A stretch of DNA of 32,000 nt from Planctomycetota bacterium (GTDB lineage: Bacteria > Planctomycetota > Brocadiia > Brocadiales > Brocadiaceae): the NCBI GenBank assembly GCA_016188675.1, contig JACPHJ010000152.1:39372-71371 (forward strand), in the 5' to 3' direction. How positions within the stretch are numbered: position 1 is the stretch's first letter; the number at the start of each line of letters is the position of its first letter. The notes under the pieces were generated by a model. The model was not told the origin of the DNA and searched no databases. It worked only from the letters and a program-made list of their open reading frames with translations. The translations under genes and the position numbers were made by a program. This document shows, one piece after another, positions 260 to 25,490 of the stretch.

Positions 260-334
260 GACTAAGTTTAATACCCGCGCAACCAAGACGGTTACGCTAA
301 TGAGAAGGCTGCCAAATGCAGCCTGATTTAATAT

Positions 335-1117: not shown

Positions 1118-1126
1118 AATAGTAAC

Positions 1127-3349: not shown

Positions 3350-3352
3350 CGA

Positions 3353-4372
3353 ATGACAAATATCTGTGTAATAACAATAATCTGTGCATATCCCCATACA
3401 CCTCTCAGTAATCTTTTTAAGGCCGTAGTATTTTGTTTTATCCTCACCTTTGTTTTCCAGGCCTCATTTCCTGATGCTTCCGTGTTTGCCGGGGGCCATA
3501 CAGCCATTGTTATACAAAGTCAGACAATTGCCGCTTATAGCGAAGCAATTAAGGGGTTTGAAGAAGGATGCAGGGATAAAGGCATCTCTATAAAGGCAAT
3601 CTATGACATGAAAGGAGACATAGACGAAGGTAAAAGTGTCATAAAAAATATTAAGGACAACAAACTCAGACCAGACCTTATCTTCTCCGTCGGTGTACTC
3701 GCCACAGCCCTCATAAAAGAGCAATTTCCGGATGTCCCTATCCTCTTTTGTATGGTTATAAATTACAAGCGTTTTAATTTAGCAGGCGCTAATATGACGG
3801 GTATTTCTTCAGAGGTGTCGGCTGAGGATCAATTTACTATTCTCAAGGAATTTCTTGGTGAAAAAAAGAGAATTGGAGTTATTTATGATCCAATGGAAAC
3901 CGGAAGTATTGTCTCAGAAGCAGTCCCCATTGGGCAAAAATCCGATTTCAATCTCCTCAAGGCAGAGGTTGCATCGGAAGGTGAGGTTGCGTCTGCGCTG
4001 AATAGCATGATTGGCAAAATTGATGCATTTTGGATAATACCTGACGGCACGGTAGTTACAAAAGAATCCCTGGAAATTATCCTGAAGATGAGTCTGAAAC
4101 ACCGCCTGCCGGTATTTTGTACTTCAAGCGCCATAGTGAAGGCAGGGGCGCTGGTTTCCATATCGCCGGATTACAGGCAGACGGGCCTTCAGGCGGCACA
4201 GATGGCACAGACGCTGTTAAGCAGTCCTACGGTTATTTCATTAGGCGTCAAACAGCCTGACAAATTGAAGATAACAGTAAACACCCAGACGGCAGGAATA
4301 ATTAAGGTAGATATGTCACCCCTTCGGTCAAGGCCTGACGTAGTGTTATATCCGGTAGCGCAACCAAAGTGA
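3353..4372 (+). CDS. Periplasmic ABC-type substrate-binding protein, PF04392-like (BMP/ABC_sub_bind family)
   Basis: N-terminal hydrophobic signal. Family-like blocks PDLIFSVGVLATA, VPILFCMV, NMTGISSEV, KRIGVIYDP, DAFWIIPD, LPVF and GALVSISPDY. Starts 4 nt after the receptor stop. Confidence 0.75.
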   Translation: MTNICVITIICAYPHTPLSNLFKAVVFCFILTFVFQASFPDASVFAGGHTAIVIQSQTIAAYSEAIKGFEEGCRDKGISIKAIYDMKGDIDEGKSVIKNIKDNKLRPDLIFSVGVLATALIKEQFPDVPILFCMVINYKRFNLAGANMTGISSEVSAEDQFTILKEFLGEKKRIGVIYDPMETGSIVSEAVPIGQKSDFNLLKAEVASEGEVASALNSMIGKIDAFWIIPDGTVVTKESLEIILKMSLKHRLPVFCTSSAIVKAGALVSISPDYRQTGLQAAQMAQTLLSSPTVISLGVKQPDKLKITVNTQTAGIIKVDMSPLRSRPDVVLYPVAQPK

Positions 4373-4392
4373 GTAAAAGCGACGAGTGGCAA

Positions 4393-4432
4393 GTGGCGGG
4401 TGACGTTTTCCGCGTCACCTGTCACCCGTCAC
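4393..4432. repeat. GTGAC-rich REP-like hairpin (GTGGCGGGTGAC / GTCACCCGTCAC, 12-bp stem with one G-U pair) and an alternative inner hairpin GGTGACG/CGTCACC
   Basis: Read directly in the 120-nt gap between the binding-protein gene and the kinase gene. Confidence 0.5.
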
Positions 4433-4492
4433 TTAAAAAACTTGCTAAAAGAAGTTTTACAATGTAAGACATTAAATGCATTTTGAAATTAT

Positions 4493-8704: not shown

Positions 8705-8789
8705 AATAATAAAACACAAAACTCATACACACTAAAAATTGCGTTTAGCTTTAAAAGGATTATCTGATAAAATTATTTGGTATAAAATT

Positions 8790-8798
8790 TGATATAAT
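8790..8798 (+). promoter_or_regulatory. Candidate extended -10 promoter element (TGATATAAT) upstream of the response-regulator gene
   Basis: Exact TGnTATAAT match, 64 nt upstream of the ATG at 8862. No good -35 element. Confidence 0.3.
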
Positions 8799-8861
8799 TT
8801 AACATAGATTTTAATAACGTATTTTCGGAAGACCTTAAATATTTGATTATTGGGTAGAAAT

Positions 8862-10628
8862 ATGGAATCAAAAATTCTTGTAATTGACGATGAAGAAAGT
8901 ATCAGGTATACCTTCGAAAGCTTTCTTTTAGACGAAGGGTATGAGGTATTAACTGCAAGGGATTACCAGGAAGCCTTGTCTGCAATTGGCGCGACGGAAC
9001 TCGATTTGATATTTGCAGATATTCTCTTAGAGGGAAAGACAGGAATTGATGTTTTAAGAAAAACTAAAGAAAGAAATCTCCGATGTCCCGTTGTTATGAT
9101 TACGGGAGACCCTAATATAGATTCTGCTTCGGAAGCGCTTCGGTTAGGCGCCTTTGATTACATTCCCAAACCTATAAAGCAGGATACGCTTTTGCGTATT
9201 ACTAAGATAGCCTTACAACATAAGGCGCTGGTTGACGAGAAGGAGCGGTATCGCTCTAACCTTGAGGCTATTTTCAGGAGTGTAAAAGATGCAATCATCG
9301 CGGTGGATAAAGAATTATGCCTGCTTGAGATTAATGATGCGGCCAAAACCATTTGTAATTTGTCTCATGATTCTATTGGAAAGGCATTTAATTCCACTGC
9401 TAAATATTGCAATGGAAAATGTCTTGATGTACTTGAAGAAACTATTAATAAAAAACAGCCTGTTGAGGTATATCGTCTTGAATGCCAGCACAAACAGCGT
9501 CCACAACAGGTTGTAAATATCACTTCACATCCGTTATTGAGTAAAATATCTAAACCAGCAAATTCCTTTTCTGCTAAAAACGAACAATGTGAAATTTATC
9601 AGGACAGTAAAAATACATTCTCAGGCGTTATCCTCGTGGTAAGAGATGAAACGCGTTTAGCAAATCTCGAACAAGATCTGAGGGAACGCCAGCAATTCCA
9701 TAATATCATTGGGAAAAGTGAAAAAATGCAGGCTATTTATTCTCTCATTGATAATTTAGCCGACGTTGAGACCACGGTCCTGATTACTGGCGAAACCGGC
9801 ACAGGTAAAGAATTGATTGCGGAGGCATTGCATTCCAAAGGGGGACGATGCCATAAACCTCTCGTTAAAGTAAATTGCTCGGCGTTATCGGAAAATCTGC
9901 TTGAAAGTGAACTCTTTGGACATGTTAAAGGCGCTTTTTCAGGCGCTATTCAGGATAGAATCGGCAGATTTCAAAGGGCAAATGGAGGAACTATATTTTT
10001 GGATGAAATTGGCGATATATCTCCAAGGACGCAACTACAATTGTTGAGGGTGGTACAGGAAAAAGAATTTGAAAGGGTGGGAGATTCGACTCCTATCAAA
10101 GTTGACGTTAGAATTGTTGCTGCTACAAATCAGAGTCTTCGGGAGAAGGTAAGGCGCGGCGATTTTCGTGAAGACCTTTACTATCGCCTGAAGGTTGTCG
10201 AACTAATCATGCCGCCGCTAAGAGAAAGAAAAGAAGATATTCCTTTATTATTAAATCATTTTCTGAATAAGTTTAACAAAAAGTTAAATAAGGAAATTGT
10301 TGCTGTCTCTACTGATGTACAAAAAATATTTATGGATTGTTCCTGGCCTGGCAATGTTCGGGAACTCGAACATACCCTGGAACACGCCTTTATCCTTTGC
10401 CGGCAAAATACCATTACCATTGATTGTTTGCCGCTTGCTTTTAAAGATCTTACAGGAACTAAAATTCCTGCTTTAGGAGAACCGGGAGTTGACGAACTTC
10501 ATGCGATCCTTCATGCACTGGAAAAGACATCGTGGAACAAAGCCAGGGCAGCCCGCCTATTAGGTATGAGCAGGCGAACAATATATCGAAAAATTAAAGA
10601 ATTCAAAATCAAGATGCAGAGTACATAA
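8862..10628 (+). CDS. Sigma54-dependent response regulator (REC, PAS-like, AAA+ sigma54-interaction domain, Fis-type HTH), NtrC family
   Basis: REC (ILVIDDEE...FADILL). Walker A GETGTGKE. GAFSGA (GAFTGA variant). ESELFGH. C-terminal HTH ARLLGMSRRTIYRKIKE. The ATG at 8862 is preferred over the TTG at 8850. Confidence 0.9.
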   Translation: MESKILVIDDEESIRYTFESFLLDEGYEVLTARDYQEALSAIGATELDLIFADILLEGKTGIDVLRKTKERNLRCPVVMITGDPNIDSASEALRLGAFDYIPKPIKQDTLLRITKIALQHKALVDEKERYRSNLEAIFRSVKDAIIAVDKELCLLEINDAAKTICNLSHDSIGKAFNSTAKYCNGKCLDVLEETINKKQPVEVYRLECQHKQRPQQVVNITSHPLLSKISKPANSFSAKNEQCEIYQDSKNTFSGVILVVRDETRLANLEQDLRERQQFHNIIGKSEKMQAIYSLIDNLADVETTVLITGETGTGKELIAEALHSKGGRCHKPLVKVNCSALSENLLESELFGHVKGAFSGAIQDRIGRFQRANGGTIFLDEIGDISPRTQLQLLRVVQEKEFERVGDSTPIKVDVRIVAATNQSLREKVRRGDFREDLYYRLKVVELIMPPLRERKEDIPLLLNHFLNKFNKKLNKEIVAVSTDVQKIFMDCSWPGNVRELEHTLEHAFILCRQNTITIDCLPLAFKDLTGTKIPALGEPGVDELHAILHALEKTSWNKARAARLLGMSRRTIYRKIKEFKIKMQST

Positions 10629-10690
10629 TACACGGTAATCCTTTCCCGCCATATCATATATCACCCGTTTTTTATACATTCCTTTCCATC

Positions 10691-10736
10691 ACACAATGTG
10701 TCATGTCACACTTTTGCGCTGACACATATATGTGTC
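10691..10736. promoter_or_regulatory. Cluster of ACAC/GTGT palindromes: ACACAATGTGT (10691-10701), TGTCA-N11-TGACA, and a perfect 16-bp palindrome GACACATATATGTGTC (10721-10736)
   Basis: Read directly, 60-110 nt downstream of the regulator stop, at the start of a roughly 600-nt AT-rich non-coding gap. Confidence 0.4.
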
Positions 10737-10750
10737 GTTGTTACATGTTT

Positions 10751-10780
10751 TTCATTTCTCTTGTGTAGTTCATTTCTCTT
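10751..10780 (+). repeat. Direct repeat TTCATTTCTCTT x2 separated by 6 nt
   Basis: Read directly (10751-10762 and 10769-10780). Confidence 0.6.
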
Positions 10781-11227
10781 TCTCATAGCCAACATTGTCT
10801 TTCATATATCATTTATCGCTTCGGCTCATTCAAAGCATCAAGTACCAACGCTCAATTGTTAATATTTTAAACAAAAAAAGATCAATATCGATAGTCTTCA
10901 CTGTATTATTCATGCTGCTTATGCGTTATTAAGTTCACAATGGTTATTAATAATAAACAAATTATTTGCAGTATCATGGCATATATTTTGATAACTGTAC
11001 TGTAAGGATGTTTATTGTAATAGAACCATTGCTTGTCCAAATTAAATTGTAAAAGGAAGGAATGTATGAGTTTTATCTTACTGTTCAGCGCTTTGATTTC
11101 TTTGTTTTTAATAGTGGTGTTATAAATAAAAAAAAGAAATATTCCTGGTTGTTCTCGATAGTTATTGAAACTTAATGAGATTTGGAGGACTATTGAATTG
11201 GAAATATCAAAAGTTGTATATAAATTA

Positions 11228-12355
11228 ATGGAAGACGAAATGATGAGATTATTATTATCTGACGTTACAGATCTCACATACATTTATGATACGAATGGAA
11301 ATATTTTGTTTGTAAATAAGATATTTGAAAAATTTACCGTGCAAAGGCCTGAGGAATTTTACGGGAAACCGTTTATATCTCTTTTCAACGAAGAAGATCA
11401 AAAGAAAGTAACGGATGCTTATGCAAAGACATTGAACGGAGAGAGTACTCAATATGAACTTTGTTTTAAAAATACTGGAGTGTTATGTGAATACAAAAAT
11501 TTTCCGTTGAGAAATGAGAAGGGACAGATAATTGGAATTACTGGTATAGCTCGGGACATTACTGCCCGCAAACAATCTGAAGAAGGGTTGCGGGTACTTA
11601 ACAAATCTCTAGAAAAACGTGTGGTTGAACATACGGCTAAGTTAGTGGAGGTGAACGAAGAACTAATGGAAGAAATTAACAATCGCATGCGACAGGAAGA
11701 GGAGTTTAAACAAAGTATTAAGAAGTTGCAAAAATCATTGAGTGGAATCGTTCAAACTTTAGCATTGTCTATTGAGTCAAAAGACTCTTACGCGATAGGG
11801 CACCAGAAACGGGTAGCCAGGCTTGCTCGCTGTATAGCCGAGGAGATGGGTCTATCAAAGGATAGGATCGAAGGCGTCAGTATAGCTGCTATTCTTCACG
11901 ACATTGGCAATATTTCTGTGCCCACTGAGCTTCTAAATAAATCAGAGCGGCTTTCTGAGGATGAAGTTAATATAATCAAGACTCATCCACGTGTTGGTTA
12001 TGATATATTAAACGAAATGGAATTCCCGCATCCTGTTGCTCAAATCGTACTTCAACATCATGAAAGGGTCGATGGGTCTGGGTATCCTTTGGGCTTATCA
12101 GGAAAGGATATTCTCCTGGAAGCAAAAATTCTGGGCGTGGCCGACGTTATTGACGCGATGTTGTCTCCTCATCCATATAGGCCCGCACTTGGTTTGGATA
12201 AGGCATTAGATGAAGTTTCACGAAACAGAGGCATCCTTTATGATTTTAATGTAGTGTATGCCTGCCTGGTTGTTTTTAATGAAAAAGGATTTAAATATAA
12301 TGATTGGTCACGTACTAATTTAAGAATATTCGAGGACGTTCTACTGAGTGTTTAA
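11228..12355 (+). CDS. PAS-domain HD-GYP c-di-GMP phosphodiesterase
   Basis: HD (AILHDIGNISVP) and HHERVDGSGYP motifs. N-terminal PAS ending DITARK. The ORF is open from a TTG at 11165. The ATG at 11228 is the first ATG, so the start is uncertain. Confidence 0.85.
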   Translation: MEDEMMRLLLSDVTDLTYIYDTNGNILFVNKIFEKFTVQRPEEFYGKPFISLFNEEDQKKVTDAYAKTLNGESTQYELCFKNTGVLCEYKNFPLRNEKGQIIGITGIARDITARKQSEEGLRVLNKSLEKRVVEHTAKLVEVNEELMEEINNRMRQEEEFKQSIKKLQKSLSGIVQTLALSIESKDSYAIGHQKRVARLARCIAEEMGLSKDRIEGVSIAAILHDIGNISVPTELLNKSERLSEDEVNIIKTHPRVGYDILNEMEFPHPVAQIVLQHHERVDGSGYPLGLSGKDILLEAKILGVADVIDAMLSPHPYRPALGLDKALDEVSRNRGILYDFNVVYACLVVFNEKGFKYNDWSRTNLRIFEDVLLSV

Positions 12356-12363
12356 ATTAACTG

Positions 12364-12687
12364 ATGAATTGTAAAATGTCGGTAATAATTGTCGGGGGTG
12401 ATCATCTTGGGTGTATTCCAAAGGAACTTGACAGAATTGGTATCTCGAAAATTCAGCACTTAACCGGCAGGAGCGGACAAAAGATTCGCGGAAGAATGCC
12501 TGATAAGGCGGATTTTATTATTCTCCTTTACGATTTTGTAAATCATAATCTGGCGTACAAAATAAAAAAATTTGCAAGTAACAGAGGAATACCCATAATC
12601 TATGCAAAGAGGTCCTGGCCTTCTATATATCTTGGTATACAGGAACATCATCAGCAATTTAAAAAAGCAGGGTTAAATTTTTTATAA
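12364..12687 (+). CDS. DUF2325-like small protein
   Basis: Pattern VIIVGGD...H.TGR......(D)FIILLYDFVNHNL..KIK..A....IPIIYAKRS matches my recollection of DUF2325. Starts 9 nt after the HD-GYP stop. An alternative ATG lies at 12376. Confidence 0.55.
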   Translation: MNCKMSVIIVGGDHLGCIPKELDRIGISKIQHLTGRSGQKIRGRMPDKADFIILLYDFVNHNLAYKIKKFASNRGIPIIYAKRSWPSIYLGIQEHHQQFKKAGLNFL

Positions 12688-12703
12688 TTGAGAAAGGCAG
12701 ATT

Positions 12704-12952
12704 ATGATCGGAAACACATTCCTGGCATGTCCAAACTGCGGTGAAATTAAAAAATTCAGAATATTTACGAGTAACTTCCAAATTGTTGAACAATCTCCTG
12801 AAGTGGGGATCCGCACATATGAAAGCGGGATCCTGCCTAGTTTACGGGAAAACGATAACTACATCGAGTGCCAGTCATGTTTTAAAAAATCAGAGTATGA
12901 TGTTGCAGCAGATACCGGTAAAAAATTCATTCAGGATAACAAAAAATTATAA
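12704..12952 (+). CDS. Small zinc-ribbon protein (CPNC ... CQSC), function unknown
   Basis: Two CxxC pairs 44 residues apart. GAGAAAGG lies upstream of the ATG. The overlapping +72-aa alternative frame has no such features. Confidence 0.5.
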   Translation: MIGNTFLACPNCGEIKKFRIFTSNFQIVEQSPEVGIRTYESGILPSLRENDNYIECQSCFKKSEYDVAADTGKKFIQDNKKL

Positions 12953-12994
12953 AAGATGAGATTGCAACTCTGAGCTGGGTGTTTCATCTCTTCC

Positions 12995-13015
12995 GGAGGT
13001 GGGACACCCTCCTCC
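12995..13015 (+). terminator. GC-rich stem-loop GGAGGTGGG-aca-CCCTCCTCC (8/9 bp) after the zinc-ribbon gene
   Basis: Read directly. No U-tract, so terminator function is uncertain. Confidence 0.3.
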
Positions 13016-13184
13016 CCCATATAATAGAAATGCCTTTGTAACCTCGAAAATCTCCAATTACTTATCCTTCCTCTGTGCAATTTAACTTTTGCGGTAGTCT
13101 TGTTGTTATATATAGTGTCTGAATAAAAACTCATATTTTGCCAGTTTAAATCGTTTATTCGCCTTATGCTATTGTAAATTGTCA

Positions 13185-13213
13185 TTGACATTATTTTTGC
13201 AAATTTGTAGAAT
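13185..13213 (+). promoter_or_regulatory. Near-consensus sigma70-type promoter TTGACA-17 nt-TAGAAT upstream of acpS
   Basis: -35 at 13185-13190, 17-nt spacer, -10 at 13208-13213. Lies 72 nt upstream of the acpS ATG. Confidence 0.5.
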
Positions 13214-13285
13214 GCCAACTATCGTTGTGACAGATACTTGCATTATAAGTATTTAATATGGTCATGAAAGCGAAACAAAATAGTT

Positions 13286-13672
13286 ATGTACGTTGGAATC
13301 GATATTATAGAAATAAAACGTATTGAGAGATTGTTTTCTGTCAATGAGGGTTTCCTGCGAAAAATTTACACTGAAAAAGAGGTTGCTTACTGTAACCCCA
13401 AAAAGAACAAATACCAGCATTTTGCAGCTCGTTTCGCCACAAAAGAGGCCATGTTCAAGGCATTAGGGACTGGTTGGGTTGGGAAAATGAAATGGACGGA
13501 TATCGAACTGTTAAACGACGAAATGGGCAGGCCATATGTTAACCTTTATGGAAGTGTGAAAGAATTGGCAGACAAGAAACAGATTGACGATATCGCCGTA
13601 TCATTATCACACTGTCAGGATTACGCAATTGCACAGGTACTATTGGTACCAAAAAAAGAGGAACGTTCATGA
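13286..13672 (+). CDS. acpS: Holo-[acyl-carrier-protein] synthase (AcpS-type 4'-phosphopantetheinyl transferase)
   Basis: GIDIIEIKRI, FAARFATKEAMFKALG, WTDIEL..D..GRP and SLSHC.DYAIAQVLL; 128 aa. Confidence 0.9.
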   Translation: MYVGIDIIEIKRIERLFSVNEGFLRKIYTEKEVAYCNPKKNKYQHFAARFATKEAMFKALGTGWVGKMKWTDIELLNDEMGRPYVNLYGSVKELADKKQIDDIAVSLSHCQDYAIAQVLLVPKKEERS

Positions 13673-15147
13673 AAAAGCTTGTACTAATTAATCCGCATCC
13701 GATTGGAAATGTTGGTGAAGAAAATGTCTCTGTATTAAATCAAATGCCCGTGAATCTTGGGTATTTAAAGGTATTAACACCAAAGAATTGGCATGTTGAT
13801 ATCATAGACGAAACACAGGAACTTGCGATTGACGATACCGGAAATATTACTTTTGGTGAAGCTGACCTGGTTGGCATTACATCGGTAAGTTATCAGGCAC
13901 ATCGTGCATATCAAATAGCTACTGTCTGCAAAAAACGGGGTATACCCGTGATTATGGGCGGCATTCATGCCACCAGTTATCCGGAAGAGGCGGCAAACTA
14001 TGTGGATTGCGTTGTGACTAGAGAAGCCGTGACTACATGGGAAAAAATTATTAGCGATTTTGAAAAGGGATGTCTCCAAAAAAGATACGAAGGTGTTCTG
14101 ACACCCATGGAGTTGTATCAGGGACTGAGGCCTGATAGAAAATATTTAAAGGATAAATACAAATACCGCTACTCGGGTATCATAACAACTGCGGGTTGTC
14201 CTTTCAGTTGCGAGTTCTGCTCCGTGCCTCAGTTCCAGGGCAGGAAATATCGTGAAAGACCCGTTGAAGACGTCCTCGATGAATTCGAATCCATTAAAGG
14301 TCAATATCGCGGTTTAATATTAACGGACGAAAACTTTTATGGGCACAGCAAAAAGTCCAATGAACGTGTTCTTGAACTTTTCAAGGGAATGGTGGAGAGA
14401 GGCATTTATCAGAATTGGTTCGGGTTTACCTCACTCAACATTTACAAAGACGATGAAACCCTTGAATACATGAAAAAGAGCGGGTGCGTCGGGGTATTGA
14501 TTGGAATAGAATCCATCAATGAAGAAGCCCTGAAAACGATGAATAAGAATGTAAACCTGCGCATCTCGATTGAGAATTATTTCGAAGCCATTGCCAATAT
14601 CCGTAAACACGGTCTTGCAGTCTGGGGGACAATGGTATTTGGTAACGATGCCGATACGCCTGAAACCTTTAAACAGGTTGCTGATTTTGTTATGGATTCC
14701 CATGTTGATATCATGACCTGCGGTATTTTGTGTCCATTCATCAATACACCGCTGTATCACAGATTGAAAGGCGATGGCAGGCTGTTCAGGACAAACTTCC
14801 CCGAGGATTGGAAGTATTACACGTCTCATCACCTTACCTATATTCTCAAAAATATGTCTCTCCAGGAACTTATTGACGGCTTCCAATACTTGTATGACAA
14901 GATTTACGCCACAGAAGTATTGCGTCAAAGGTTCCAGAACGCAAAAGAGGTACTCAAAGATAACATGAATGCCGCCATGTTTGCATTCAGGGTAAATCTC
15001 GACTGGCAGAGTGTCTATCAACACCTGATACAAAATTTAAAAGAATTGCAAACATCGGGGTTTTACGAAGAGACATTGAAAAGCTATAATCTTGCGGGAA
15101 AACAGGGTAGAAAGCCGGAATTGACTGCCGTTGAGGCTCAGTCATAA
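13669..15147 (+). CDS. B12-binding-domain radical SAM enzyme (class B type)
   Basis: N-terminal cobalamin-binding-like Rossmann segment (DLVGITSVSYQAHRAY..A..CKKRGIPVIMGGIHAT). CPFSCEFC (CxxxCxxC, Cys codons at 14197, 14209 and 14218). The start overlaps the acpS stop (ATGA). Confidence 0.88.
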   Translation: MKKLVLINPHPIGNVGEENVSVLNQMPVNLGYLKVLTPKNWHVDIIDETQELAIDDTGNITFGEADLVGITSVSYQAHRAYQIATVCKKRGIPVIMGGIHATSYPEEAANYVDCVVTREAVTTWEKIISDFEKGCLQKRYEGVLTPMELYQGLRPDRKYLKDKYKYRYSGIITTAGCPFSCEFCSVPQFQGRKYRERPVEDVLDEFESIKGQYRGLILTDENFYGHSKKSNERVLELFKGMVERGIYQNWFGFTSLNIYKDDETLEYMKKSGCVGVLIGIESINEEALKTMNKNVNLRISIENYFEAIANIRKHGLAVWGTMVFGNDADTPETFKQVADFVMDSHVDIMTCGILCPFINTPLYHRLKGDGRLFRTNFPEDWKYYTSHHLTYILKNMSLQELIDGFQYLYDKIYATEVLRQRFQNAKEVLKDNMNAAMFAFRVNLDWQSVYQHLIQNLKELQTSGFYEETLKSYNLAGKQGRKPELTAVEAQS

Positions 15148-15160
15148 GATACCGCAATTT

Positions 15161-15190
15161 GAGATTTATGATTTGGAATCATAAGTTCTC
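15161..15190 (+). terminator. Hairpin TTATGATT-tgg-AATCATAA (perfect 8 bp, extendable), 14 nt after the radical SAM stop; related to the gatttacgatt/aatcgtaaatc repeat family
   Basis: Read directly. Confidence 0.4.
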
Positions 15191-15235
15191 TGTGGTTTAT
15201 TCGATTTCAGCAGTTGAATTTTATTGGTTATTATA

Positions 15236-15272
15236 GGTCAACTTATTCGCATTGAAAGGTGAATAGTTGACC
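15236..15272 (+). promoter_or_regulatory. Hairpin GGTCAACT(T)ATTC / GAATAGTTGACC (12 bp, one bulge, 12-nt loop), 29 nt upstream of the KS start
   Basis: Read directly. Function unknown (RNA structure or operator). Confidence 0.35.
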
Positions 15273-15300
15273 TCTATTATTTTACAGAATAAAAATAGAT

Positions 15301-16512
15301 ATGCCAAAGGTCGTAATTACAGGATTGGGATTAGTCACGCCCGTTGGAACAGGGATCAAAAAAAGCTGGGAATCGTTCATCCTGGGCAGAAACGGAGCGA
15401 ATGAGATGAAGTCATTCGATACATCCAAATACAAGGTGCACCGTTCCTGTGAGGTAAAAGATTTTCACTTAGACGTTGAGCTTGAAAACCAGATAAAGGA
15501 AAATACCATCCACAAATATGTCTACTACGCAGCCAGAGAGGCGTTACAGGAAAGCGGTTTATTGGATGATAAAAATTTCAACAGAGAACGGTTTGGTATT
15601 GCCATTGGTACATTAGCAGCCGAATTAACGCCTTTTGAGAGACTTCTCAGGTTAGACACTTCAAAAAAAGACAACGGTTTCGACAAGATTGTTGCAGCAG
15701 TTTATCCCCCCAATTCTATAACAAATATCCTGTCTGAAAATTTTGATTTCGAAGGCCCAACCATGATTTCATTGAATGCCTGCTCATCCGGCAATCATGC
15801 AATTGCCTGGGCCTGCGACCTTCTTTTAGAAAACAAGGTTGATGTGGTAATGGTCGGAGGGGGCGACATGATTCCTCAAACGGAATTCACCCATTTCCAT
15901 AACCTCAAGGCATTAGCGCCCGAACGCTGTCAGCCATTCGATAAAAACCGTCAGGGTCTCATGATTGGAGAAGGGGCTGGGATACTTATTATGGAACGCT
16001 ACGAATTTGCTAAAAAACGAGGCGCAGCGATTATCGCTGAAATGGCTGGTTACGGGCTGAGCTGTGATGGATTTCACATGACGGCGCCACATCCAGAAGG
16101 CGACGGCGCTGTAAAATGCATGAGCGATGCGCTAAAAATGGCAAATCTTTCTCAGGCAGACATCGGTTACATTAATGCACACGGCACTGGGACACCCCAT
16201 AACGACAAAACAGAAACAATTGCCATAAAACGTGTATTCACGGAATACGCCCATAAAATTCCCTGCAGTTCCACGAAATCTATGATTGGTCACCTTATGG
16301 GCGCGGCCAGTGCTGTAGAATCGGTCATTTGTTGTCTGGTACTACGGCATGGAATCGTACCGCCAACGATTAATTACGAAACGCCTGATCCGGAGTGTGA
16401 CCTCGATTATATACCCAATACGGCACGCGAATTAAATGTAAAGCATGTCTTGAATAATTCATTTGCCTTCGGCGGAAATAACGCCACGACAATTTTTAGT
16501 AAGATGGGTTAA
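15301..16512 (+). CDS. fabF: Beta-ketoacyl-ACP synthase II-type ketosynthase, catalytically complete
   Basis: NACSSGNHAI (Cys161, codon 15781-15783), FHMTAPHP, NAHGTGTPHND, KSMIGHLMGAAS and NSFAFGGNNAT. Confidence 0.9.
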   Translation: MPKVVITGLGLVTPVGTGIKKSWESFILGRNGANEMKSFDTSKYKVHRSCEVKDFHLDVELENQIKENTIHKYVYYAAREALQESGLLDDKNFNRERFGIAIGTLAAELTPFERLLRLDTSKKDNGFDKIVAAVYPPNSITNILSENFDFEGPTMISLNACSSGNHAIAWACDLLLENKVDVVMVGGGDMIPQTEFTHFHNLKALAPERCQPFDKNRQGLMIGEGAGILIMERYEFAKKRGAAIIAEMAGYGLSCDGFHMTAPHPEGDGAVKCMSDALKMANLSQADIGYINAHGTGTPHNDKTETIAIKRVFTEYAHKIPCSSTKSMIGHLMGAASAVESVICCLVLRHGIVPPTINYETPDPECDLDYIPNTARELNVKHVLNNSFAFGGNNATTIFSKMG

Positions 16513-16566
16513 GCAAAGCGAATCATCATTTAAGTCTATCCGTGTTGATCCGTAGTAAAAAACATT

Positions 16567-17802
16567 ATGAAAAAAAGAGTCGTTATTACAGGCTTAGGTG
16601 TTGTATCTCCTCTAGGATGTGGCAAAGAAGCCTTCTGGAATAACCTTATAGAGGGAAAGTCAGGTATTGCACCAATGACCTCTCTTGACCTCTCTCCCTA
16701 TAAATGCAAGCTCGGAGGCGAGGTTAGAGACCTGCATCCTGAGATACACCTGGGAAGCAAGGGACTAAAATACTTAAACAAAGGCACACGTTTTTTAGGC
16801 TCTGCCTCTAAGATGGCCATTGACGATGCAAAGATACCGCAGGACGGTTCCTTATCGAATCGTATGGGTATTGTCATAGGCTCATCTCTCGGAAATTTTT
16901 CTGAAACGACAGATTACTTCTACGAAATAATCCGTAATAATCCATCCGAGTTGTCACCCATGCTCAGTTATGACGTTGCTTTAAATTCTTCCATTAACTA
17001 TGTCTCGGTCATCTTTAAAATAAAGGGACTCGCGCGCACCATTTCTGCGGGTTTTACGTCTAGTACAGACGCAATAGGTGATGCCTATAAAATGATTCAG
17101 AGAGATATGGCAAAGGTAATTGTGGCTGGCGGTGTCGAGCAGATTTCCATTGATTTATATCTCATATTCTATTTACGGGGCTTGCTGTCCGGCCTTGATA
17201 GTACAAAAGAGGCAAGCACACCATTTGATAAGGACAGAAATGGCTTTGTCATGGCTGAAGGCAGTTACGTAGTTATTCTCGAAGAGCTCCAGCATGCCAT
17301 TGACCGGGGAGCGCATATCTATGCAGAGATAAAGGGATTTGGAAATACCTTTGTAGGAGGCAAAAACCATCCGGCAGATGAAAGAATTCGTCGGGCCGAA
17401 AAGGCTATGCACGGCGCTTTAGAAGACGCGGAAGTTAAAAAAGAAGACGTTGATTTCATCAGTGCAAATGCGAACGGATGCAAGATACAGGATGCAGTCG
17501 AGGCAAAGGCAATCCAATCATTATTCGGCGCAGGCAGCAATCGTATTCCAGTATCTGCAATAAAATCAAACATCGGCGAATCGTACGGGTCCGCAGGCGC
17601 AGCACAACTCATTTCATCGCTCATGTCAATAAACACAGGTCAAATACCGCACATCATCAATCACAACAACAAAGATCCAGAAATCAGTCTGAATCTTATC
17701 ATAGAAAAACCCCTCAAAAAAGAAATCCAAAACGCAATAATAAATAACATGGATTATGATGGAAATAATTCATGTCTGGTAATAAGCAAGTGTAGCAAAT
17801 AA
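16567..17802 (+). CDS. Ketosynthase-fold paralog lacking the Cys-His-His triad (chain-length-factor-like / KS-beta-like)
   Basis: Thiolase/KS fold motifs are retained (VVITGLGVVSPLG, DKDRNGFVMAEGS). The active-site positions read SAGFTSSTDAI (no Cys), GNTFVGGKNHP (no HxTAP), SANANGC (His to Asn) and KSNIGESYG (His to Glu). Confidence 0.85.
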   Translation: MKKRVVITGLGVVSPLGCGKEAFWNNLIEGKSGIAPMTSLDLSPYKCKLGGEVRDLHPEIHLGSKGLKYLNKGTRFLGSASKMAIDDAKIPQDGSLSNRMGIVIGSSLGNFSETTDYFYEIIRNNPSELSPMLSYDVALNSSINYVSVIFKIKGLARTISAGFTSSTDAIGDAYKMIQRDMAKVIVAGGVEQISIDLYLIFYLRGLLSGLDSTKEASTPFDKDRNGFVMAEGSYVVILEELQHAIDRGAHIYAEIKGFGNTFVGGKNHPADERIRRAEKAMHGALEDAEVKKEDVDFISANANGCKIQDAVEAKAIQSLFGAGSNRIPVSAIKSNIGESYGSAGAAQLISSLMSINTGQIPHIINHNNKDPEISLNLIIEKPLKKEIQNAIINNMDYDGNNSCLVISKCSK

Positions 17803-17871
17803 ATAATGTAATGCTTATTGATTGTGTTGTTTTATTATATTAACCGTCTTAAATAAGTTGACATTGAATGC

Positions 17872-17937
17872 TTGTCATTCCGAGCGGAGCGAGGAATCTT
17901 AAGATTTCTCAGTCGCTCTGCTCCTTCGAAATGACAA
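17872..17937. repeat. REP-like imperfect inverted repeat (TTGTCATTCCGAGCGGAGCGAGGAATC ... CGAAATGACAA)
   Basis: Perfect 8-bp outer arms TTGTCATT/AATGACAA with partially complementary GAGCGGAGCGA / TCGCTCTGCTC inside. Lies 70 nt after the KS-like stop. Confidence 0.6.
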
Positions 17938-18206
17938 CTTTCTTTTGTCGTTCGTTATAGATAAGATGAAATAGATAAAGGATTCGATGCCAGTGTAACT
18001 ACGACAGAAAATGCAAAATAACAAAATCAAACAATTATCATGATCCGTATAATATTCAAATTTTATCGTTACATAGAAATTATCAAATGCTTTTCAACAC
18101 GATTCTGATAGTTCCACATGAAATTGAAATATCATAAATAAGTCATTGGTAATTCATAGAATAAAGATAAATGTTATACGGACAAAAAATTTCAAAACCA
18201 TAAAAA

Positions 18207-18971
18207 ATGTTTGACACTCACTCAGTACACAAGAAGCCAGCAAATTCACGTCAAAAAATGTGGCGTTATATGACATACGAAAAACTCATGCAGACAATTG
18301 AAGAGGAGGTGATGTACTTTTCAAATATCACCCAAATGGGAGATAATTGGGAAGGGCTGCTGACGAAAAAGACGAGAGAAATGTTTTGGAGGTCTGAGCT
18401 TGCGAAATACAATGGAAATATGGAAGCAGCAGAAGGTTCAGTCAGACGGTACGAAGAATTTAGGAAGGATTTTTACATAAACTGTTGGCACATGAATGAT
18501 CATGAGTCTTACCTGATGTGGAAGGTTTACGCGAACAAAGGTTGTGCCATTCAAACTAACTATGAACGGCTCTCGGCTTCTTTCGAGGCTACGCCAGCTA
18601 AAATTGAAGGTTGTGTTGTCGAATATATCGATTATGAAAGAGACTATTTCAGTATAGGAAACACGTATACTCAAGTTGGTTACAAGGACATTCCGTACCG
18701 AGATGAGCGTGAGTACAGACTTCTATTTTGGAAGTCCGGTCTAGAAAACCAAAAGCTCAATGCAGGAGACAAAGGCATAAAAATACAAGTAGACCTAAGA
18801 ATGCTTATTGATAATATTTACCTCAACCCCAATCATCTACCCGATTACAGTGAATTGGAGAGTTTGATAAAGAAAAAGAGGTTAGACTGTGATATCAAAA
18901 ACACGAAAATCATGGAAAATAATGTACGCCCGTCCAAAGTGGTAAATTATCACATCTTAAAAGTTAAATAA
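18207..18971 (+). CDS. DUF2971-like protein, function unknown
   Basis: N-terminal MWRYMTYEKLMQTIEEEVMYFSNITQMGDNWEG matches the DUF2971 pattern (W/Y-R-Y-M..ekf..ll....l.F......D..EG). Isolated in AT-rich DNA. An alternative start lies at 18258. Confidence 0.6.
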   Translation: MFDTHSVHKKPANSRQKMWRYMTYEKLMQTIEEEVMYFSNITQMGDNWEGLLTKKTREMFWRSELAKYNGNMEAAEGSVRRYEEFRKDFYINCWHMNDHESYLMWKVYANKGCAIQTNYERLSASFEATPAKIEGCVVEYIDYERDYFSIGNTYTQVGYKDIPYRDEREYRLLFWKSGLENQKLNAGDKGIKIQVDLRMLIDNIYLNPNHLPDYSELESLIKKKRLDCDIKNTKIMENNVRPSKVVNYHILKVK

Positions 18972-21419: not shown

Positions 21420-23444
21420 ATGAGCAAACTATTTGACAAAATACATATCGGCCAAATGACATTGAAAAACAGGATAATCATGTCCGCCATGGACCTGGGT
21501 TTTACTTCAGATGGCGCCATTAACGACCAGATTATCAACTTTTATATTGAGCGGGCAAAAGGGGGGGTAGGTCTTATTGTTGTTGGGGGTTGTTATCCCG
21601 AAATGAATGGCAAGGTCTGGAAGAGCATCATTGGGCTGGACAAGGACGAACTTATCCCCGGATTAAAAAGATTGACCGATGCAATTCGCCAGTATGACGT
21701 TCGTGTGGCCGCACAACTCCTTCATGCCGGTCGAAGCGCTTCATCCTTTTTCACAAAAATGCAGCCTGTTGCGCCGTCTGCCGTGGCATATAGAAGCATC
21801 AAAGAAGAGCCTCATGCCCTGACAATCCCTGAGATCAAAACGGTTATAAATAATTATGCAGGCGCCGCACTCAGGGCAAAAAAGGCCGGTTTTGATGCCG
21901 TGGAACTTCACGGTGGAATGGGTTATCTCATCAATCAGTTTCTTTCAAAGGCTACCAATAAACGCAACGACGAATATGGTGGAAGCCTTGAAAACAGAGT
22001 TCGTTTTGCGAAGGAAATGATTCTCGCGATAAAAGAAACTGTTGGAAAGGATTATCCCATCATCTTTCGAATGTCGGGAGACGACCTTGTAGAAGAAGGA
22101 CTAAAGATTGACGAAAGCGTTGAAATTGCCAAAATCCTTGAACAGGCAGGCGCCGACGCCTTTAACGTCTCTCCAGGCTGGCACGAAAGCAAGACCCCCA
22201 TTATGTTGATGTCTATTCCCAGGATGGCTTATGCATATCTTTCCGCGAAAGTTAAATCTCAGGTTACGGTTCCCGTGATTGCCTCGGTGCGGATAAACGA
22301 CCTCGAATTGGCAGAAGAAATATTGGATAATGAACAGGCGGATTTCGTGTCAATCGGTAGACCACTGATTGTTGATCCGGAACTGCCAAATAAATATAAA
22401 AATGGACAGTTTAATGATATCAGAACGTGTATTGCCTGTAATCAGGGGTGCTTTGATTCTTTGTTAAACTTTAAACACGTTTCCTGCACATATAATGCGA
22501 TGGTGGGACACGAAGGTGAATATAAAATAACCAAAACGGATAAACCAAAAAAGGTTGCAGTGGTGGGCGGTGGACCCGGTGGTATGGAGGCAGCCCGTGT
22601 CCTGGCATTGAGGGGACACCGTGTGACGCTGTACGAGAAAAATAATCAACTGGGCGGTCAATTGCGATATGCCTATATTCCTCCAGGACGAGAAGAAATA
22701 CAGAATATCATCACATATCTGGAAAGACAAATTTCAAAGCTCAAAGTAAACATAAAAATGGGAAGAGAGGCAGATTTGCAGACATTAGAGGAAGAACACC
22801 CTGACGCAGTAATCGTAGCTACAGGCGGACGCCCAATAATGCTCAATCTACCCGGAATAAAAGGAGAAAACGTTTATATTGCCGGCAGTGTGTTGGAAGG
22901 GAAAGTAACAACAGGGAAGGACGTCGTCATCATTGGCGGCGGAACGGTTGGATGTGAGGTGGCTTTGTATGTGGCCAAACAGGGAGCAATGAGGCCGGAT
23001 GTCGCCTGTTTTCTCCTTAAACATAAGGTGCTTGACGCCAAAGATATTGTTGAATTTACTTCGAAGGGAAACAGAAATATTACGCTCCTGGAAATGAAAA
23101 AAAAGGTGGGTGGTGGATTTGGTTTCTCCACACGATGGGTTATCCTCAATGAGCTGAAAGATGCAGGGATAAAAGAAATAACAGAGGTAAAGGTAAAAGA
23201 AATTATAAATAACCACGATGAAAATGGTCATAAAAATAGGGGAGTTGTGTACGAAAAGGACGGTCAGGAACATTTCATCAAGGCAGATACCGTAGTCATT
23301 GCCGTGGGATACGGGTCTAATAACGAACTCCAGAAACAGGTGGAAGGAAAATTTCCAGAAACTTACTTTATCGGAGACTGTGTCAAGGTGCGCACCGCAT
23401 TAGAAGCTATTCACGAAGGTTTTAAAGCAGCATTAAAAATATAG
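21420..23444 (+). CDS. 2,4-dienoyl-CoA reductase-like (FadH-type) OYE-family FMN/4Fe-4S oxidoreductase with a C-terminal FAD/NAD(P)-binding domain
   Basis: OYE N-terminus (IGQMTLKNRIIMSAM; QLLHAGR; ELHGGMGYLINQFLS..TN.R.DEYGGS). Cys cluster CIACNQGCFD...C. Dinucleotide fold VAVVGGGPGGMEAA. Confidence 0.88.
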   Translation: MSKLFDKIHIGQMTLKNRIIMSAMDLGFTSDGAINDQIINFYIERAKGGVGLIVVGGCYPEMNGKVWKSIIGLDKDELIPGLKRLTDAIRQYDVRVAAQLLHAGRSASSFFTKMQPVAPSAVAYRSIKEEPHALTIPEIKTVINNYAGAALRAKKAGFDAVELHGGMGYLINQFLSKATNKRNDEYGGSLENRVRFAKEMILAIKETVGKDYPIIFRMSGDDLVEEGLKIDESVEIAKILEQAGADAFNVSPGWHESKTPIMLMSIPRMAYAYLSAKVKSQVTVPVIASVRINDLELAEEILDNEQADFVSIGRPLIVDPELPNKYKNGQFNDIRTCIACNQGCFDSLLNFKHVSCTYNAMVGHEGEYKITKTDKPKKVAVVGGGPGGMEAARVLALRGHRVTLYEKNNQLGGQLRYAYIPPGREEIQNIITYLERQISKLKVNIKMGREADLQTLEEEHPDAVIVATGGRPIMLNLPGIKGENVYIAGSVLEGKVTTGKDVVIIGGGTVGCEVALYVAKQGAMRPDVACFLLKHKVLDAKDIVEFTSKGNRNITLLEMKKKVGGGFGFSTRWVILNELKDAGIKEITEVKVKEIINNHDENGHKNRGVVYEKDGQEHFIKADTVVIAVGYGSNNELQKQVEGKFPETYFIGDCVKVRTALEAIHEGFKAALKI

Positions 23445-23486
23445 AAATATGGCAAACATAAGCAAGTATTCTGAGGTTTTCTTGCA

Positions 23487-24293
23487 ATGAAAGATATTCG
23501 CATGAATCGTGGTGATAACTCCGGTTATAACAACATCGAGTTTGAAGAAATTTCTGGAGATAATGGCAAGGCTGTTGGCATTATCTACATGAAGAAACCA
23601 CCGCGAAACTCCATTGGATCATGGCTTCTCGACGCCATCTACAATAAAATGGATCAATACGAGGGCGATGATAAAATCGGAGCTATCGTTATTGCAAGCA
23701 AACTCAGAGGTGTCTTCAGCGACGGCGCAGACCGTGACGAACTCTTTGGCTCATGGATATCAGGACTTGTTGCAGAAAAGAACTATGAACGATTCCACCG
23801 CGCCCATGAGATGTTCGTGGAAATTGAAAATTGCAAAAAGCCCGTTGTTGCCGCTATTAACGGCGTTACTATCGGCGCAGGCCTGGAACTCGCCATGTTG
23901 TGTGACCTGCGTATTGCATCAGAACTTTCCTTCTTTAGCCTTCCGGAAGCAAAACCGGAACTCAGCATTATTCCCGGCCTGGGTGGTACTCAGCGTTTGC
24001 CTCGTTATATTGGCGCTGCACGCGCCAAGGAAATGCTGTTCCTGGGCAAGATGATCCGTGCCGAGACGGCATTGGAGTGGGGTCTCATTAACCAGATTGC
24101 GCCGCATAAAGAAGTGTTAGACCAAACCATAGAGATTGCAAAAATTCTCTTAGAACGTGATGCACGTGCGTTAAAGGAAATGAAAAAGTGTATTAACTTT
24201 GCCGTAGAGAATGATATCCTGAAGGGCATCGAATATGAGGTAGGTCTCTTTGCTGAGATGATGCGATTGAAGCTTTTACATAAAAGTAAATAA
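23487..24293 (+). CDS. Enoyl-CoA hydratase/isomerase (crotonase superfamily)
   Basis: AAINGVTIGAGLELAMLCDLRIA and LPEAKPELSIIPGLGGTQRLPR. Both catalytic Glu positions are present. Confidence 0.88.
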   Translation: MKDIRMNRGDNSGYNNIEFEEISGDNGKAVGIIYMKKPPRNSIGSWLLDAIYNKMDQYEGDDKIGAIVIASKLRGVFSDGADRDELFGSWISGLVAEKNYERFHRAHEMFVEIENCKKPVVAAINGVTIGAGLELAMLCDLRIASELSFFSLPEAKPELSIIPGLGGTQRLPRYIGAARAKEMLFLGKMIRAETALEWGLINQIAPHKEVLDQTIEIAKILLERDARALKEMKKCINFAVENDILKGIEYEVGLFAEMMRLKLLHKSK

Positions 24294-24560
24294 GGCGTTG
24301 AAATTATTTTTAAAAGAAAACAAAAAGAGTACCAACAATTGCCCAGAATTGACCAAAGATAAAAATAAACATCCATTTAGTAATCCCAGACCTGACTTTA
24401 CCAATTTCTTCAGCAACCTTCTTTCGAATTTTTCCTCTACGAGGACAATTATATCTTCTTTACTTTTTTCTTCAGATTTATTGATAATCTCTACCAAGGC
24501 ATCTGCGCCTTCATCGGTGAGTTTTTCACGCAAAACTTTAGGTATTGTAATTACTGCCAT
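24276..24560 (-). CDS. Small coiled-coil/membrane-anchored protein (DUF1640-like / MAVITIP..REKL family); possibly frameshifted
   Basis: Strong SD (AAAAGGAG) 7 nt upstream of the ATG. N-terminus MAVITIPKVLREKLTDEGADALVEIINK...VEEKFERR. The family-like TM tail is in the -1 frame (see findings). Its 3' end overlaps the crotonase gene by 18 nt. Confidence 0.55.
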   Translation of the reverse strand: MAVITIPKVLREKLTDEGADALVEIINKSEEKSKEDIIVLVEEKFERRLLKKLVKSGLGLLNGCLFLSLVNSGQLLVLFLFSFKNNFNALFTFM

Positions 24561-24657
24561 AAGTGCTCCTTTTTGATGAGATTTATTGTAGTGAGCCTAT
24601 CACGTTCTCTCTATACTGTCAAGATGTATTGCTTGGCCTCAGGCCACATTTTTTGCC

Positions 24658-24686
24658 TTGCATTTCAAAATCCATTTCTTTACTAT
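24658..24686 (+). promoter_or_regulatory. Candidate sigma70-type promoter TTGCAT-17 nt-TACTAT for fabG; a 13-bp palindrome TGGCCTCAGGCCA lies at 24634-24646 just upstream
   Basis: Read directly in the 186-nt divergent intergenic region. Confidence 0.3.
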
Positions 24687-24746
24687 ACCACATCAAAACA
24701 ATTGATAAATTGAAACAGGAAACTTACTTATTAAGGAGGATATTGC

Positions 24747-25490
24747 GTGGAATTTAAGGATAAGGTGGCAATCGTCACAGGTGGCACAAGAGGGATAGGA
24801 CGGGCAATCGCACTGGAACTGGCAAAGAACGGCTGCAACATCGCTTTTAATTATAGTAAAAGCGCTGATGCAGCAACTGCATTGGTAAAGGAAATCGAAA
24901 CCCTGGGCGTGAAAGCCTTTTCTTTACAGGTTGATGCCGCCAGTTTAGAGGGTGCAAAAAATATGATAAAAGAGGTCAAGGAAAAGTTTGGGAAAATTGA
25001 CTTTCTGGTAAACAATGCAGGAATTACCCGAGATAAACTCCTGGCCTTGATGGCAGAGAGTGACTGGGATGACGTCATCAATACCAATCTCAAGAGCGTG
25101 TATAATTTTTCAAAGGCGGTTATTACCCAGATGATCAAGCAAAAGGCAGGCAGTATCCTTAATATAACCTCTGTAAGCGGAATAATCGGGATGGCAGGCC
25201 AGGTTAACTATTCTTCCTCAAAGGCAGGCATGATCGGTTTTACGAAGGCGCTTGCAAAGGAGGTTGGAAAGGTAAATGTCACCGTAAATGCCATTGCCTG
25301 CGGTTTTATTGAAACCGATATGACAGCTGTGCTGCCCCAGGAATACAAAGATAAGGTAATCGAAATGATCCCCGTGAGAAGATTCGGCAAGGCCGAAGAG
25401 GTTGCAAAAACAGCGGTATTTTTGTTGTCTGACAATGCGAGATATATTACCGGCCATGTTATTAGTGTAGACGGCGGTTTGGCGATATAA
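24747..25490 (+). CDS. fabG: 3-oxoacyl-[ACP] reductase (SDR family)
   Basis: VTGGTRGIGRAIA, NNAGITRD, YSSSKAG and VNAIACGFIETDM. GTG start preceded by AAGGAGG. Confidence 0.9.
   Translation: MEFKDKVAIVTGGTRGIGRAIALELAKNGCNIAFNYSKSADAATALVKEIETLGVKAFSLQVDAASLEGAKNMIKEVKEKFGKIDFLVNNAGITRDKLLALMAESDWDDVINTNLKSVYNFSKAVITQMIKQKAGSILNITSVSGIIGMAGQVNYSSSKAGMIGFTKALAKEVGKVNVTVNAIACGFIETDMTAVLPQEYKDKVIEMIPVRRFGKAEEVAKTAVFLLSDNARYITGHVISVDGGLAI

Follow-up and report, generated by a model that had tools for sequence, protein, structure and literature searches.

Two groups of described proteins are closest to the locus discussed here. The first is encoded by the kuste2802–2805 genes of Kuenenia stuttgartiensis, which is an anammox bacterium. 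Kuste2802 was tabulated as AcpS and Kuste2803 as an S-adenosylmethionine (SAM)-radical/B12 enzyme, and the residues listed for Kuste2805 (Table 2 of that study) are Phe163, Asn298, Asn300, Cys302, Lys328, Glu333 and Gln342 (Rattray et al. 2009, PMC2649909). The genes were subsequently described as 'a complete cluster' with kuste2805 termed a 'non-canonical FabB', and when they were expressed in Escherichia coli in 2016, with 2803 and 2804 in one operon and 2802 and 2805 in another, the protein was almost entirely insoluble and no new fatty acid was seen (Javidpour et al. 2016, PMC4790861). The second is amxFabFhet, composed of amxFabF2 and amxFabFmut (kuste3605/3606), for which Brocadia fulgida structures are available (PDB 9s5h and 9s5i; Granatino et al. 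2026 preprint, 10.64898/2026.05.19.726425). The two subunits co-purify, malonyl-acyl carrier protein (ACP) decarboxylation and acetoacetyl-ACP formation are seen only on co-expression, and amxFabFhet prefers C6–C8; mutation of Phe135 or Val139 in amxFabFmut shifts the chain-length preference, and the authors describe the first chain length factor (CLF) in a fatty acid pathway, with no mention of 2804/2805 (10.64898/2026.05.19.726425). Here we describe a 32,000-nucleotide stretch of a Brocadiaceae metagenome-assembled genome (MAG; contig JACPHJ010000152.1, positions 39,372 to 71,371), referred to as the window, in which four consecutive genes on the + strand encode AcpS, a B12-binding radical SAM enzyme, a FabF-like ketosynthase (KS) designated KS1, and a FabF-like protein lacking the catalytic triad, KS2 (Table 1).

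The four genes are the orthologue of kuste2802–2805. KS2 has Phe, Asn, Asn, Cys, Lys, Glu and Gln at the positions aligned with the seven Kuste2805 residues, in the same pattern, the order of the four genes (AcpS, B12-radical SAM, FabF, triad-less or 'dead' KS) is the same, and both hosts are anammox bacteria, with orthologues 76–100% identical to KS2 present across the Brocadiaceae, Brocadia and Jettenia included. The two proteins differ in the gate residue, which is Phe392 in Kuste2805 and Tyr in KS2, and in their hosts, K. stuttgartiensis and a Brocadiaceae MAG respectively. From these comparisons, KS2 is assigned as the Brocadiaceae orthologue of Kuste2805. The sequence observation on KS2 was already known, having been published for Kuste2805 in 2009, and adds nothing to that description. 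The proposal in a preliminary description of the window that a Phe/Thr-type dead KS beside a FabF-like KS is a solution different from the Gln of type II polyketide synthase CLFs is not upheld as new, since the same substitutions were published for Kuste2805 and a Phe-type dead KS beside a FabF-like KS recurs in many lineages.

The residues of KS2 were mapped by MAFFT alignment with E. coli FabF, Bacillus subtilis FabF, KS1 and the 9s5h chains (FabF positions are given in E. coli numbering), and the HMMER alignment of KS2 to B. subtilis FabF (4ls5) agrees with the placement. Neither places a Cys/His/His triad in KS2, whereas KS1 has the canonical residue at all of the aligned positions (Table 1). 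The motif pairs given for KS2 and KS1 in the preliminary description are all correct, with coordinates within 3 nt, although two details need to be amended. First, the nucleophile Cys is lost as described, but it aligns with Phe alone, and not with Phe or Thr. Second, the reported loss of the Cys, both His and the GH-motif His is right as to the losses and wrong in its count of His residues, as the only His residues of the triad are those of the NAHGT and GH motifs; the His of the FHMTAP motif, lost as well, is a third conserved His that is not a member of the triad. Every dead KS examined, amxFabFmut included, keeps Lys335 and has Glu at His340, and most have Gln at Glu349; the derived residues shared by KS2 and amxFabFmut are Asn at His303, Glu at His340 and Gln at Glu349, with Lys335 kept. 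KS2 scores 330.7 against TIGR03150 (fabF), under the cutoff of 493.75, and 214 against PRK07967 (FabB), under the cutoff of 630, and as it lacks the triad and falls short of both curated cutoffs it is not a canonical FabF or FabB.

Among sequences in the PDB, the best match of KS1 is 9s5h_B (E 7.2e-122, 410 bits), the next being a FabF at 305 bits, and the best match of KS2 is 9s5h_C (E 6.1e-87, 295.4 bits), followed by B. subtilis FabF at 255.6 bits; the CLF of actinorhodin synthase, 1tqy_B, scores 162.5 bits. We infer that 9s5h_B and 9s5h_C are the B. fulgida amxFabF2/amxFabFmut complex, because the residue numbering of the reconstructed chains fits the paper and the entry pairs an active with a dead FabF homologue. 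KS1 and KS2 resemble amxFabFhet in that an active FabF-like KS stands beside a triad-less FabF-like protein, each subunit being the top PDB match of its counterpart, and in that the context is one of fatty acid synthase (FAS) rather than polyketide synthase (PKS). The amxFabF2 tunnel residues A110, A164, F203, M337 and F394 are all kept in KS1. In amxFabFmut, a helix-loop-helix that is ordered in the heterodimer is disordered in crystals of the homodimer (10.64898/2026.05.19.726425), and the segment disordered in the homodimer corresponds to KS2 residues 109–139, the low-confidence part of its AlphaFold2 (AF2) model.

Because the two subunits of a demonstrated KS/CLF-like heterodimer are, among solved structures, the nearest relatives of KS1 and KS2, a CLF-like role for KS2 appears well supported by homology. 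We consider it probable that KS1 and KS2 form a 1:1 heterodimer with a single active site, in KS1, and that KS2 is a non-catalytic, CLF-like subunit that shapes the acyl tunnel of KS1; both the formation of the heterodimer and the control of chain length would follow by extension from the paralogous amxFabF2/amxFabFmut pair. KS1, with the sole Cys-His-His site, would carry out malonyl-ACP decarboxylation and Claisen condensation. KS2 would perform no chemistry and would complete the dimer, and its helix-loop-helix would form part of the wall of the KS1 acyl tunnel and so set the chain length or shape that is accepted. Together with the neighbouring B12-radical SAM enzyme, the pair probably acts on an ACP-bound lipid intermediate of an anammox-specific pathway, for which ladderane synthesis is the candidate. 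The interpretation as a KS/CLF-like pair is that established in 2026 for the sister pair amxFabF2/amxFabFmut.

There are several departures from amxFabFmut. KS2 has 295 bits to 9s5h_C as opposed to 905 bits to its own family, the Cys site is Val or Thr in amxFabFmut and Phe in KS2, and the genes around amxFabFhet encode amxACP, FabZ, a phytoene-desaturase-like protein and the kuste3608 radical SAM protein, whereas KS1 and KS2 are accompanied by AcpS and a different family of B12-radical SAM enzyme. With Phe at the Cys site and a location outside this amxFabFhet gene context (Cluster I), KS2 is a paralogue of amxFabFmut and not its orthologue. A further departure is in the tunnel-gating residues F135, T138 and V139 of amxFabFmut, which in KS2 are Ser, Val and Ala, with an adjacent Tyr135. 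The three changes may reflect a different chain preference and perhaps a wider tunnel, a suggestion that stays tentative because the invariant Tyr135 adjoins the Ser and the region is of low confidence in the model.

KS2 is under purifying selection. In a search of 5.8 billion proteins it has one 100% identical relative (from a 'Planctomycetes bacterium' MAG) and 119 clusters at 76–91% identity; all of the named clusters are Ca. Brocadia, Brocadiaceae or Jettenia, at 79–91%. In the conservation set of the window protein and these 120 hits (n=121), Phe163 is present in 121 of 121 sequences, Asn301 in 119 and Glu338 in 120, and Lys333 and Gln347 are invariant, so that orthologues do conserve the same substitutions, as the preliminary description had asked. 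Stops and X residues are absent from all 120 database hits, of which 108 are 409–416 aa long, with most lengths clustering at 409–413 aa. The ratio of non-synonymous to synonymous substitution rates (dN/dS) against three Brocadiaceae loci is 0.057–0.066 for KS2 and 0.027–0.030 for KS1. The AF2 monomer model of KS2 (pLDDT 89.2, pTM 0.90) is of low confidence only in the segment noted above, and a Foldseek comparison with a PDB library predating 9s5h gives B. subtilis FabF as the best match (TM 0.88), indicating a FabF fold; B. subtilis FabF is likewise the best structural match of amxFabFmut (Granatino et al. 2026, 10.64898/2026.05.19.726425). Loss of the whole catalytic triad could be read as a sign that KS2 is a duplicate without function that is on its way to becoming a pseudogene, but this is refuted by the selection and conservation data and we give it next to no weight: the substitutions are fixed across the 121 sequences, dN/dS is ~0.06, the helix-loop-helix is the best conserved segment, with the core SYDVALN (134–140) invariant, the fold is confidently predicted, and the gene is intact and full length in the 120 database clusters, which include several Brocadiaceae lineages (Brocadia and Jettenia among them), as well as in the JAIQZO anammox family. 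The earlier view of KS2 as a structural partner rather than a decayed gene is therefore the one favored by the data.

The distribution of conserved positions within KS2 is uneven. Mean per-site identity (n=121) is 0.847 for the whole protein, 0.979 for the helix-loop-helix (105–140) and 0.961 for the interacting helix (194–206), and 0.84–0.85 around the dead His sites; the invariant SYDVALN aligns with the tunnel-lining FPNTVLN of amxFabFmut. When KS1 and KS2 are compared in eight loci, KS1 has 0.87–0.94 at the His sites, 0.745 in the helix-loop-helix and 0.75 overall, and the corresponding values for KS2 are 0.61–0.75, 0.80 and 0.68. Judged by these values, constraint in KS2 has shifted away from the catalytic positions and onto the elements of the interface and tunnel, and KS1 shows the reverse.

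The two genes are also linked beyond the window. A scan of a genome collection with degenerate KS2 patterns mostly retrieved canonical FabF genes and gave five useful Brocadiaceae loci. In the window, as in L001, L003, L005, L081, L082/L089, L083, L087 and L088, an active KS of the KS1 clade lies directly upstream of a dead KS; these loci come from several MAGs of the Brocadiaceae, from a second anammox family and from contigs that are not of anammox origin. In a distance-based neighbour-joining tree (200 bootstraps, no CLF included, with moderate support at deep nodes), amxFabF2, KS1 and the KSs beside the dead KSs in L081–L083 form an active-partner clade with 100% bootstrap support. The dead partners form a clade at 68%, with the KS2-type proteins as a subclade at 75%, the active and dead clades jointly split from canonical FabFs at 68%, and the branching orders of the two are mirrored for loci with both partners sampled. 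The simplest reading of the tree is that one ancient duplication gave rise to an active/dead pair that was then duplicated as a pair, in which case KS1/KS2 and amxFabF2/amxFabFmut would derive from one ancestral pair.

Several observations weigh against a KS1/KS2 heterodimer with KS2 as its CLF-like subunit. First, electrostatic asymmetry was reported as the driver of amxFabF heterodimerisation (10.64898/2026.05.19.726425), and a sequence-level net-charge test of the helix-loop-helix and the interacting helix shows no asymmetry for KS1/KS2, although none is seen for the reference B. fulgida pair either, which makes the test uninformative. Second, no ACP, FabZ or amine-oxidase family match is present among the Pfam-scanned window proteins, and as the window lacks an ACP, a FabZ and a phytoene-desaturase-like gene the assignment of KS1 and KS2 to a pathway is indirect. 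Third, the replacement residues Phe163, Asn301, Cys305, Glu338 and Gln347 are strongly conserved, as might also be expected of a protein with a new role in ligand binding or catalysis. Fourth, amxFabFmut of S. brodae is able to crystallise as a homodimer (10.64898/2026.05.19.726425). Fifth, in a Brocadiaceae MAG (ERP124720_co1_183; L004, 8001–9236) genes for KS1, the radical SAM enzyme and AcpS are all missing from the 8 kb to each side of a KS2 orthologue of 80% identity; no other sampled locus has the pair unlinked, and this one could reflect a rearrangement or an assembly artefact. The last two of these would be consistent with KS2 acting independently of KS1, either as a homodimeric scaffold, as an acyl-ACP-binding protein, or as partner of a different ketosynthase such as a canonical FabF or amxFabF2, and the presence of seven FabB/F paralogues in anammox genomes (Rattray et al. 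2009, PMC2649909) also speaks for this. However, we regard independence from KS1 as improbable, given the KS1-clade KS immediately upstream in eight sampled relative loci as well as in the window, the mirrored KS1-type and KS2-type trees, and the high conservation of an interface helix-loop-helix that is nonetheless predicted to be disordered in isolation.

The third of these points bears on a different explanation, in which KS2 is neofunctionalised and the conserved Cys305, Glu338, Lys333 and Asn301/303 bind or process a substrate other than malonyl. In one version of this, proposed in 2009, divergent FabB/F paralogues would bring a ladderane moiety that is made separately into the synthesis of fatty acids (Rattray et al. 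2009, PMC2649909), and in addition to the near invariance of the replacement residues (n=121), the dead subunit in 9s5h retains a tunnel of its own in which PEG (polyethylene glycol) is bound (10.64898/2026.05.19.726425). However, KS2 has no nucleophile at the canonical position and has lost both of the His residues used for decarboxylation, conservation around the dead His sites does not exceed the average over the protein, in contrast to KS1, and the Lys335/Glu340/Gln349 combination resembles what may be a charge-compensating structural swap. Furthermore, amxFabFmut alone is inactive and the preprint argues against a catalytic role for that paralogue (10.64898/2026.05.19.726425). A new activity for KS2 thus seems unlikely, if slightly less so than independence from KS1, and a CLF-like partner of KS1 remains the reading that we prefer.

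The KS-alpha/KS-beta pairs of type II PKSs (e.g. actinorhodin, 1tqy; ishigamide Iga11/Iga12, 6kxd) are similar in that an active KS is encoded next to a catalytically disabled homologue whose part is to shape the acyl cavity. They also differ in several ways. The Cys site is Gln in aromatic CLFs and Phe in KS2; both His are lost in KS2, such that no CLF-type decarboxylase activity is possible; there is no cyclase, aromatase or PKS ACP near KS2; and in the tree KS2 groups with FabF-derived dead KSs. KS2 is not a type II PKS CLF, because it has Phe instead of Gln and its 162.5 bits to 1tqy_B fall below the scores to FabF and amxFabFmut given above, and it appears to be a dead subunit of separate origin. 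The Phe at the Cys site and the PDB scores also bear out the initial placement of KS2 outside a type II PKS context.

Table 1. Coordinates of features in the window, KS2 residues aligned with E. coli FabF, and related loci.
Feature	Position	Strand	Remarks
AcpS-type 4'-phosphopantetheinyl transferase	13286..13672	+	kuste2802 orthologue; Pfam PF01648, E 3.5e-19
B12-binding radical SAM enzyme with DUF4070	13669..15147	+	kuste2803 orthologue; Pfam PF02310, PF04055, PF13282
Conserved near-perfect inverted repeat, AGGTCAACTTATTC-N12-GAATAGTTGACCT	15235..15273	.	~30 nt upstream of KS1
KS1, FabF-like ketosynthase	15301..16512	+	kuste2804 orthologue; 403 aa; intact Cys-His-His
KS2, triad-less FabF-like protein	16567..17802	+	Kuste2805 orthologue; 411 aa
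KS2 residues 105–140, helix-loop-helix	16879..16986	+	equivalent amxFabFmut segment lines the partner's acyl tunnel
KS2 Phe163 codon	17053..17055	+	at nucleophile Cys163 of FabF
KS2 Lys266			at FabF His268 (YHMT motif)
KS2 Asn301 codon	17467..17469	+	at first catalytic His, FabF His303
KS2 Asn303			at FabF Thr305
KS2 Cys305			at FabF Thr307
KS2 Lys333			FabF Lys335 retained
KS2 Glu338 codon	17578..17580	+	at second catalytic His, FabF His340
KS2 Gln347			at FabF Glu349
KS2 Tyr397			at FabF Phe400 (gate)
OYE/FadH-like flavoprotein reductase	21420-23444	+	674 aa; tentative associate; NCBIfam
Enoyl-CoA hydratase	23487-24293	+	tentative associate; NCBIfam
L001, L087, L088 (Brocadiaceae MAGs)			AcpS / radical SAM / KS / dead KS; AcpS gene not called in L088
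L081 (JAIQZO MAG, novel anammox family)			radical SAM / KS / dead KS / OYE-type reductase
L083, L084 (Blastocatellia MAG GCA_035652355.1 and near-identical JGI soil 3300005529 contig)	6799-13133		KS / dead KS / radical SAM / DUF374 / radical SAM
L089 (Logan SRR13254584_18761, Antarctic geothermal soil)	1-12202		single array of both pair types; 56% GC

Two of the loci extend the module of KS, dead KS and 2803-type radical SAM gene in ways that are new here. The first is its presence in a Blastocatellia MAG and a near-identical soil contig (L083 and L084; Table 1). The dead KS there is Phe-type and 41% identical to KS2, and the radical SAM protein is 59% identical to that of the window. The module is of 50% GC, equal to its flanks, and the MAG is labelled Acidobacteriota; the dead KS has few close relatives, its next-nearest homologues being anammox proteins. 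The second is the Antarctic contig L089, which holds the module in one array with an amxFabF2/amxFabFmut-like pair. The first part of the array contains a FabZ-like gene, a KS with 64% identity to amxFabF2, a dead KS with 57% identity to amxFabFmut and Glu at the Cys site, and a phytoene-desaturase-like gene, and it continues with three 2803-type radical SAM genes, a KS and a dead KS with 57% and 45% identity to KS1 and KS2, respectively, and an enoyl-CoA hydratase (ECH) gene. Its GC content compares with 37–47% in the anammox loci sampled. The presence of both anammox clusters in a single array argues that both pairs serve one pathway.

Occurrence of the module outside known anammox bacteria would imply either that ladderane-like chemistry extends beyond the Brocadiales or that the product is a different radical-SAM-tailored fatty acid and the module is not ladderane-specific; both this and the linkage to a specific family of B12-radical SAM enzymes bear on how ladderane-specific the cluster is. 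Somewhat speculatively, the 2804/2805-type pair might be a second and functionally distinct FAS-type KS/CLF heterodimer, co-evolving with the 2803-type B12-radical SAM enzyme in a module of three genes and acting on a radical-SAM-modified or bulkier chain than the C6–C8 of amxFabFhet. We note that in 2016 kuste2804 and kuste2805 were placed in separate operons and gave almost entirely insoluble protein, and that in 2026 the sister pair was active only when co-expressed. What the locus adds to the earlier descriptions is the prediction of 2804/2805 as a second KS/CLF pair of the FAS type, the bias of conservation towards the interface, and the module outside known anammox genomes. Many proteins of ~750–870 aa among the nearest 50%-cluster representatives (P0123, P0125, P0127, P0129 and others) contain two matches to KS2. 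These seem to be KS-KS didomain fusions, and could be covalently linked KS/dead-KS pairs.

Upstream of the pair, the AcpS product exceeds the cutoff of NCBIfam TIGR00516 acpS (95.7 bits; cutoff 59.8), and L001 has an AcpS at the equivalent position with 90% identity. The stop of the AcpS gene overlaps the start of the radical SAM gene by 4 nt. The radical SAM protein is 71% identical to its counterpart in L081, 57% to that in L082 and 59% to that in the Blastocatellia locus, and a KS/dead-KS pair adjoins each. Membership of the annotated ladderane family TIGR04072 'rSAM_ladder_B12' (NCBIfam) was considered for the window protein and rejected, as it scores 85 bits against a cutoff of 360. KS1 and KS2 are 29% identical to each other, and each is covered along its whole length by the N- and C-terminal ketoacyl-synthase domains of Pfam, KS2 end to end with PF00109 (E 1.5e-32) and PF02801 (E 2.9e-25).

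The 153-nt spacer between the radical SAM gene and KS1 (15148–15300) contains a near-perfect inverted repeat (Table 1), present in one copy in the window; z for the spacer is -3.7, and the right arm of the repeat overlaps a promoter-like site at 15252–15280. The palindrome is kept, with paired base changes, upstream of the KS1 orthologues in the Brocadia loci L001, L003 and L088, and was not found upstream of those at L087 and L081. An Rfam scan of 12900–18300 gave zero matches. The repeat may serve the KS1–KS2 unit as an operator or as an RNA hairpin.

Synteny downstream of KS2 is generally broken, and transposases and unrelated genes are present there. Genes for an Old Yellow Enzyme (OYE)/FadH-like reductase, an ECH and a short-chain dehydrogenase/reductase (SDR) (21420–25490) start 3.6 kb downstream of KS2 in the window, and OYE/ECH/SDR genes adjoin the dead KS in L002 too; the dead KS is directly followed by an OYE homologue in L081 and by an ECH in L082/L089. 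The linkage is missing at L001, L003, L005, L087 and L088, and membership of the OYE and ECH genes in the KS cluster is tentative. Just downstream of KS2, an open reading frame of 254 aa (18207–18971) has a match to PDC-S31, a candidate defence family of PADLOC (E 1.5e-12), and none in Pfam or NCBIfam; it sits in a variable region that has transposases in other genomes. At the other end of the window, the interval 335–12952 encodes, in order, a ParA/MinD-like ATPase, a TonB-dependent receptor, an ABC substrate-binding protein, a 1403-aa multi-PAS/GAF histidine kinase, a sigma-54 response regulator, a PAS-HD(-GYP-like) protein and a DUF2325 protein. The kinase–regulator–HD–DUF2325 block is syntenic in the Brocadia locus L088, where it lies directly upstream of the lipid cluster.

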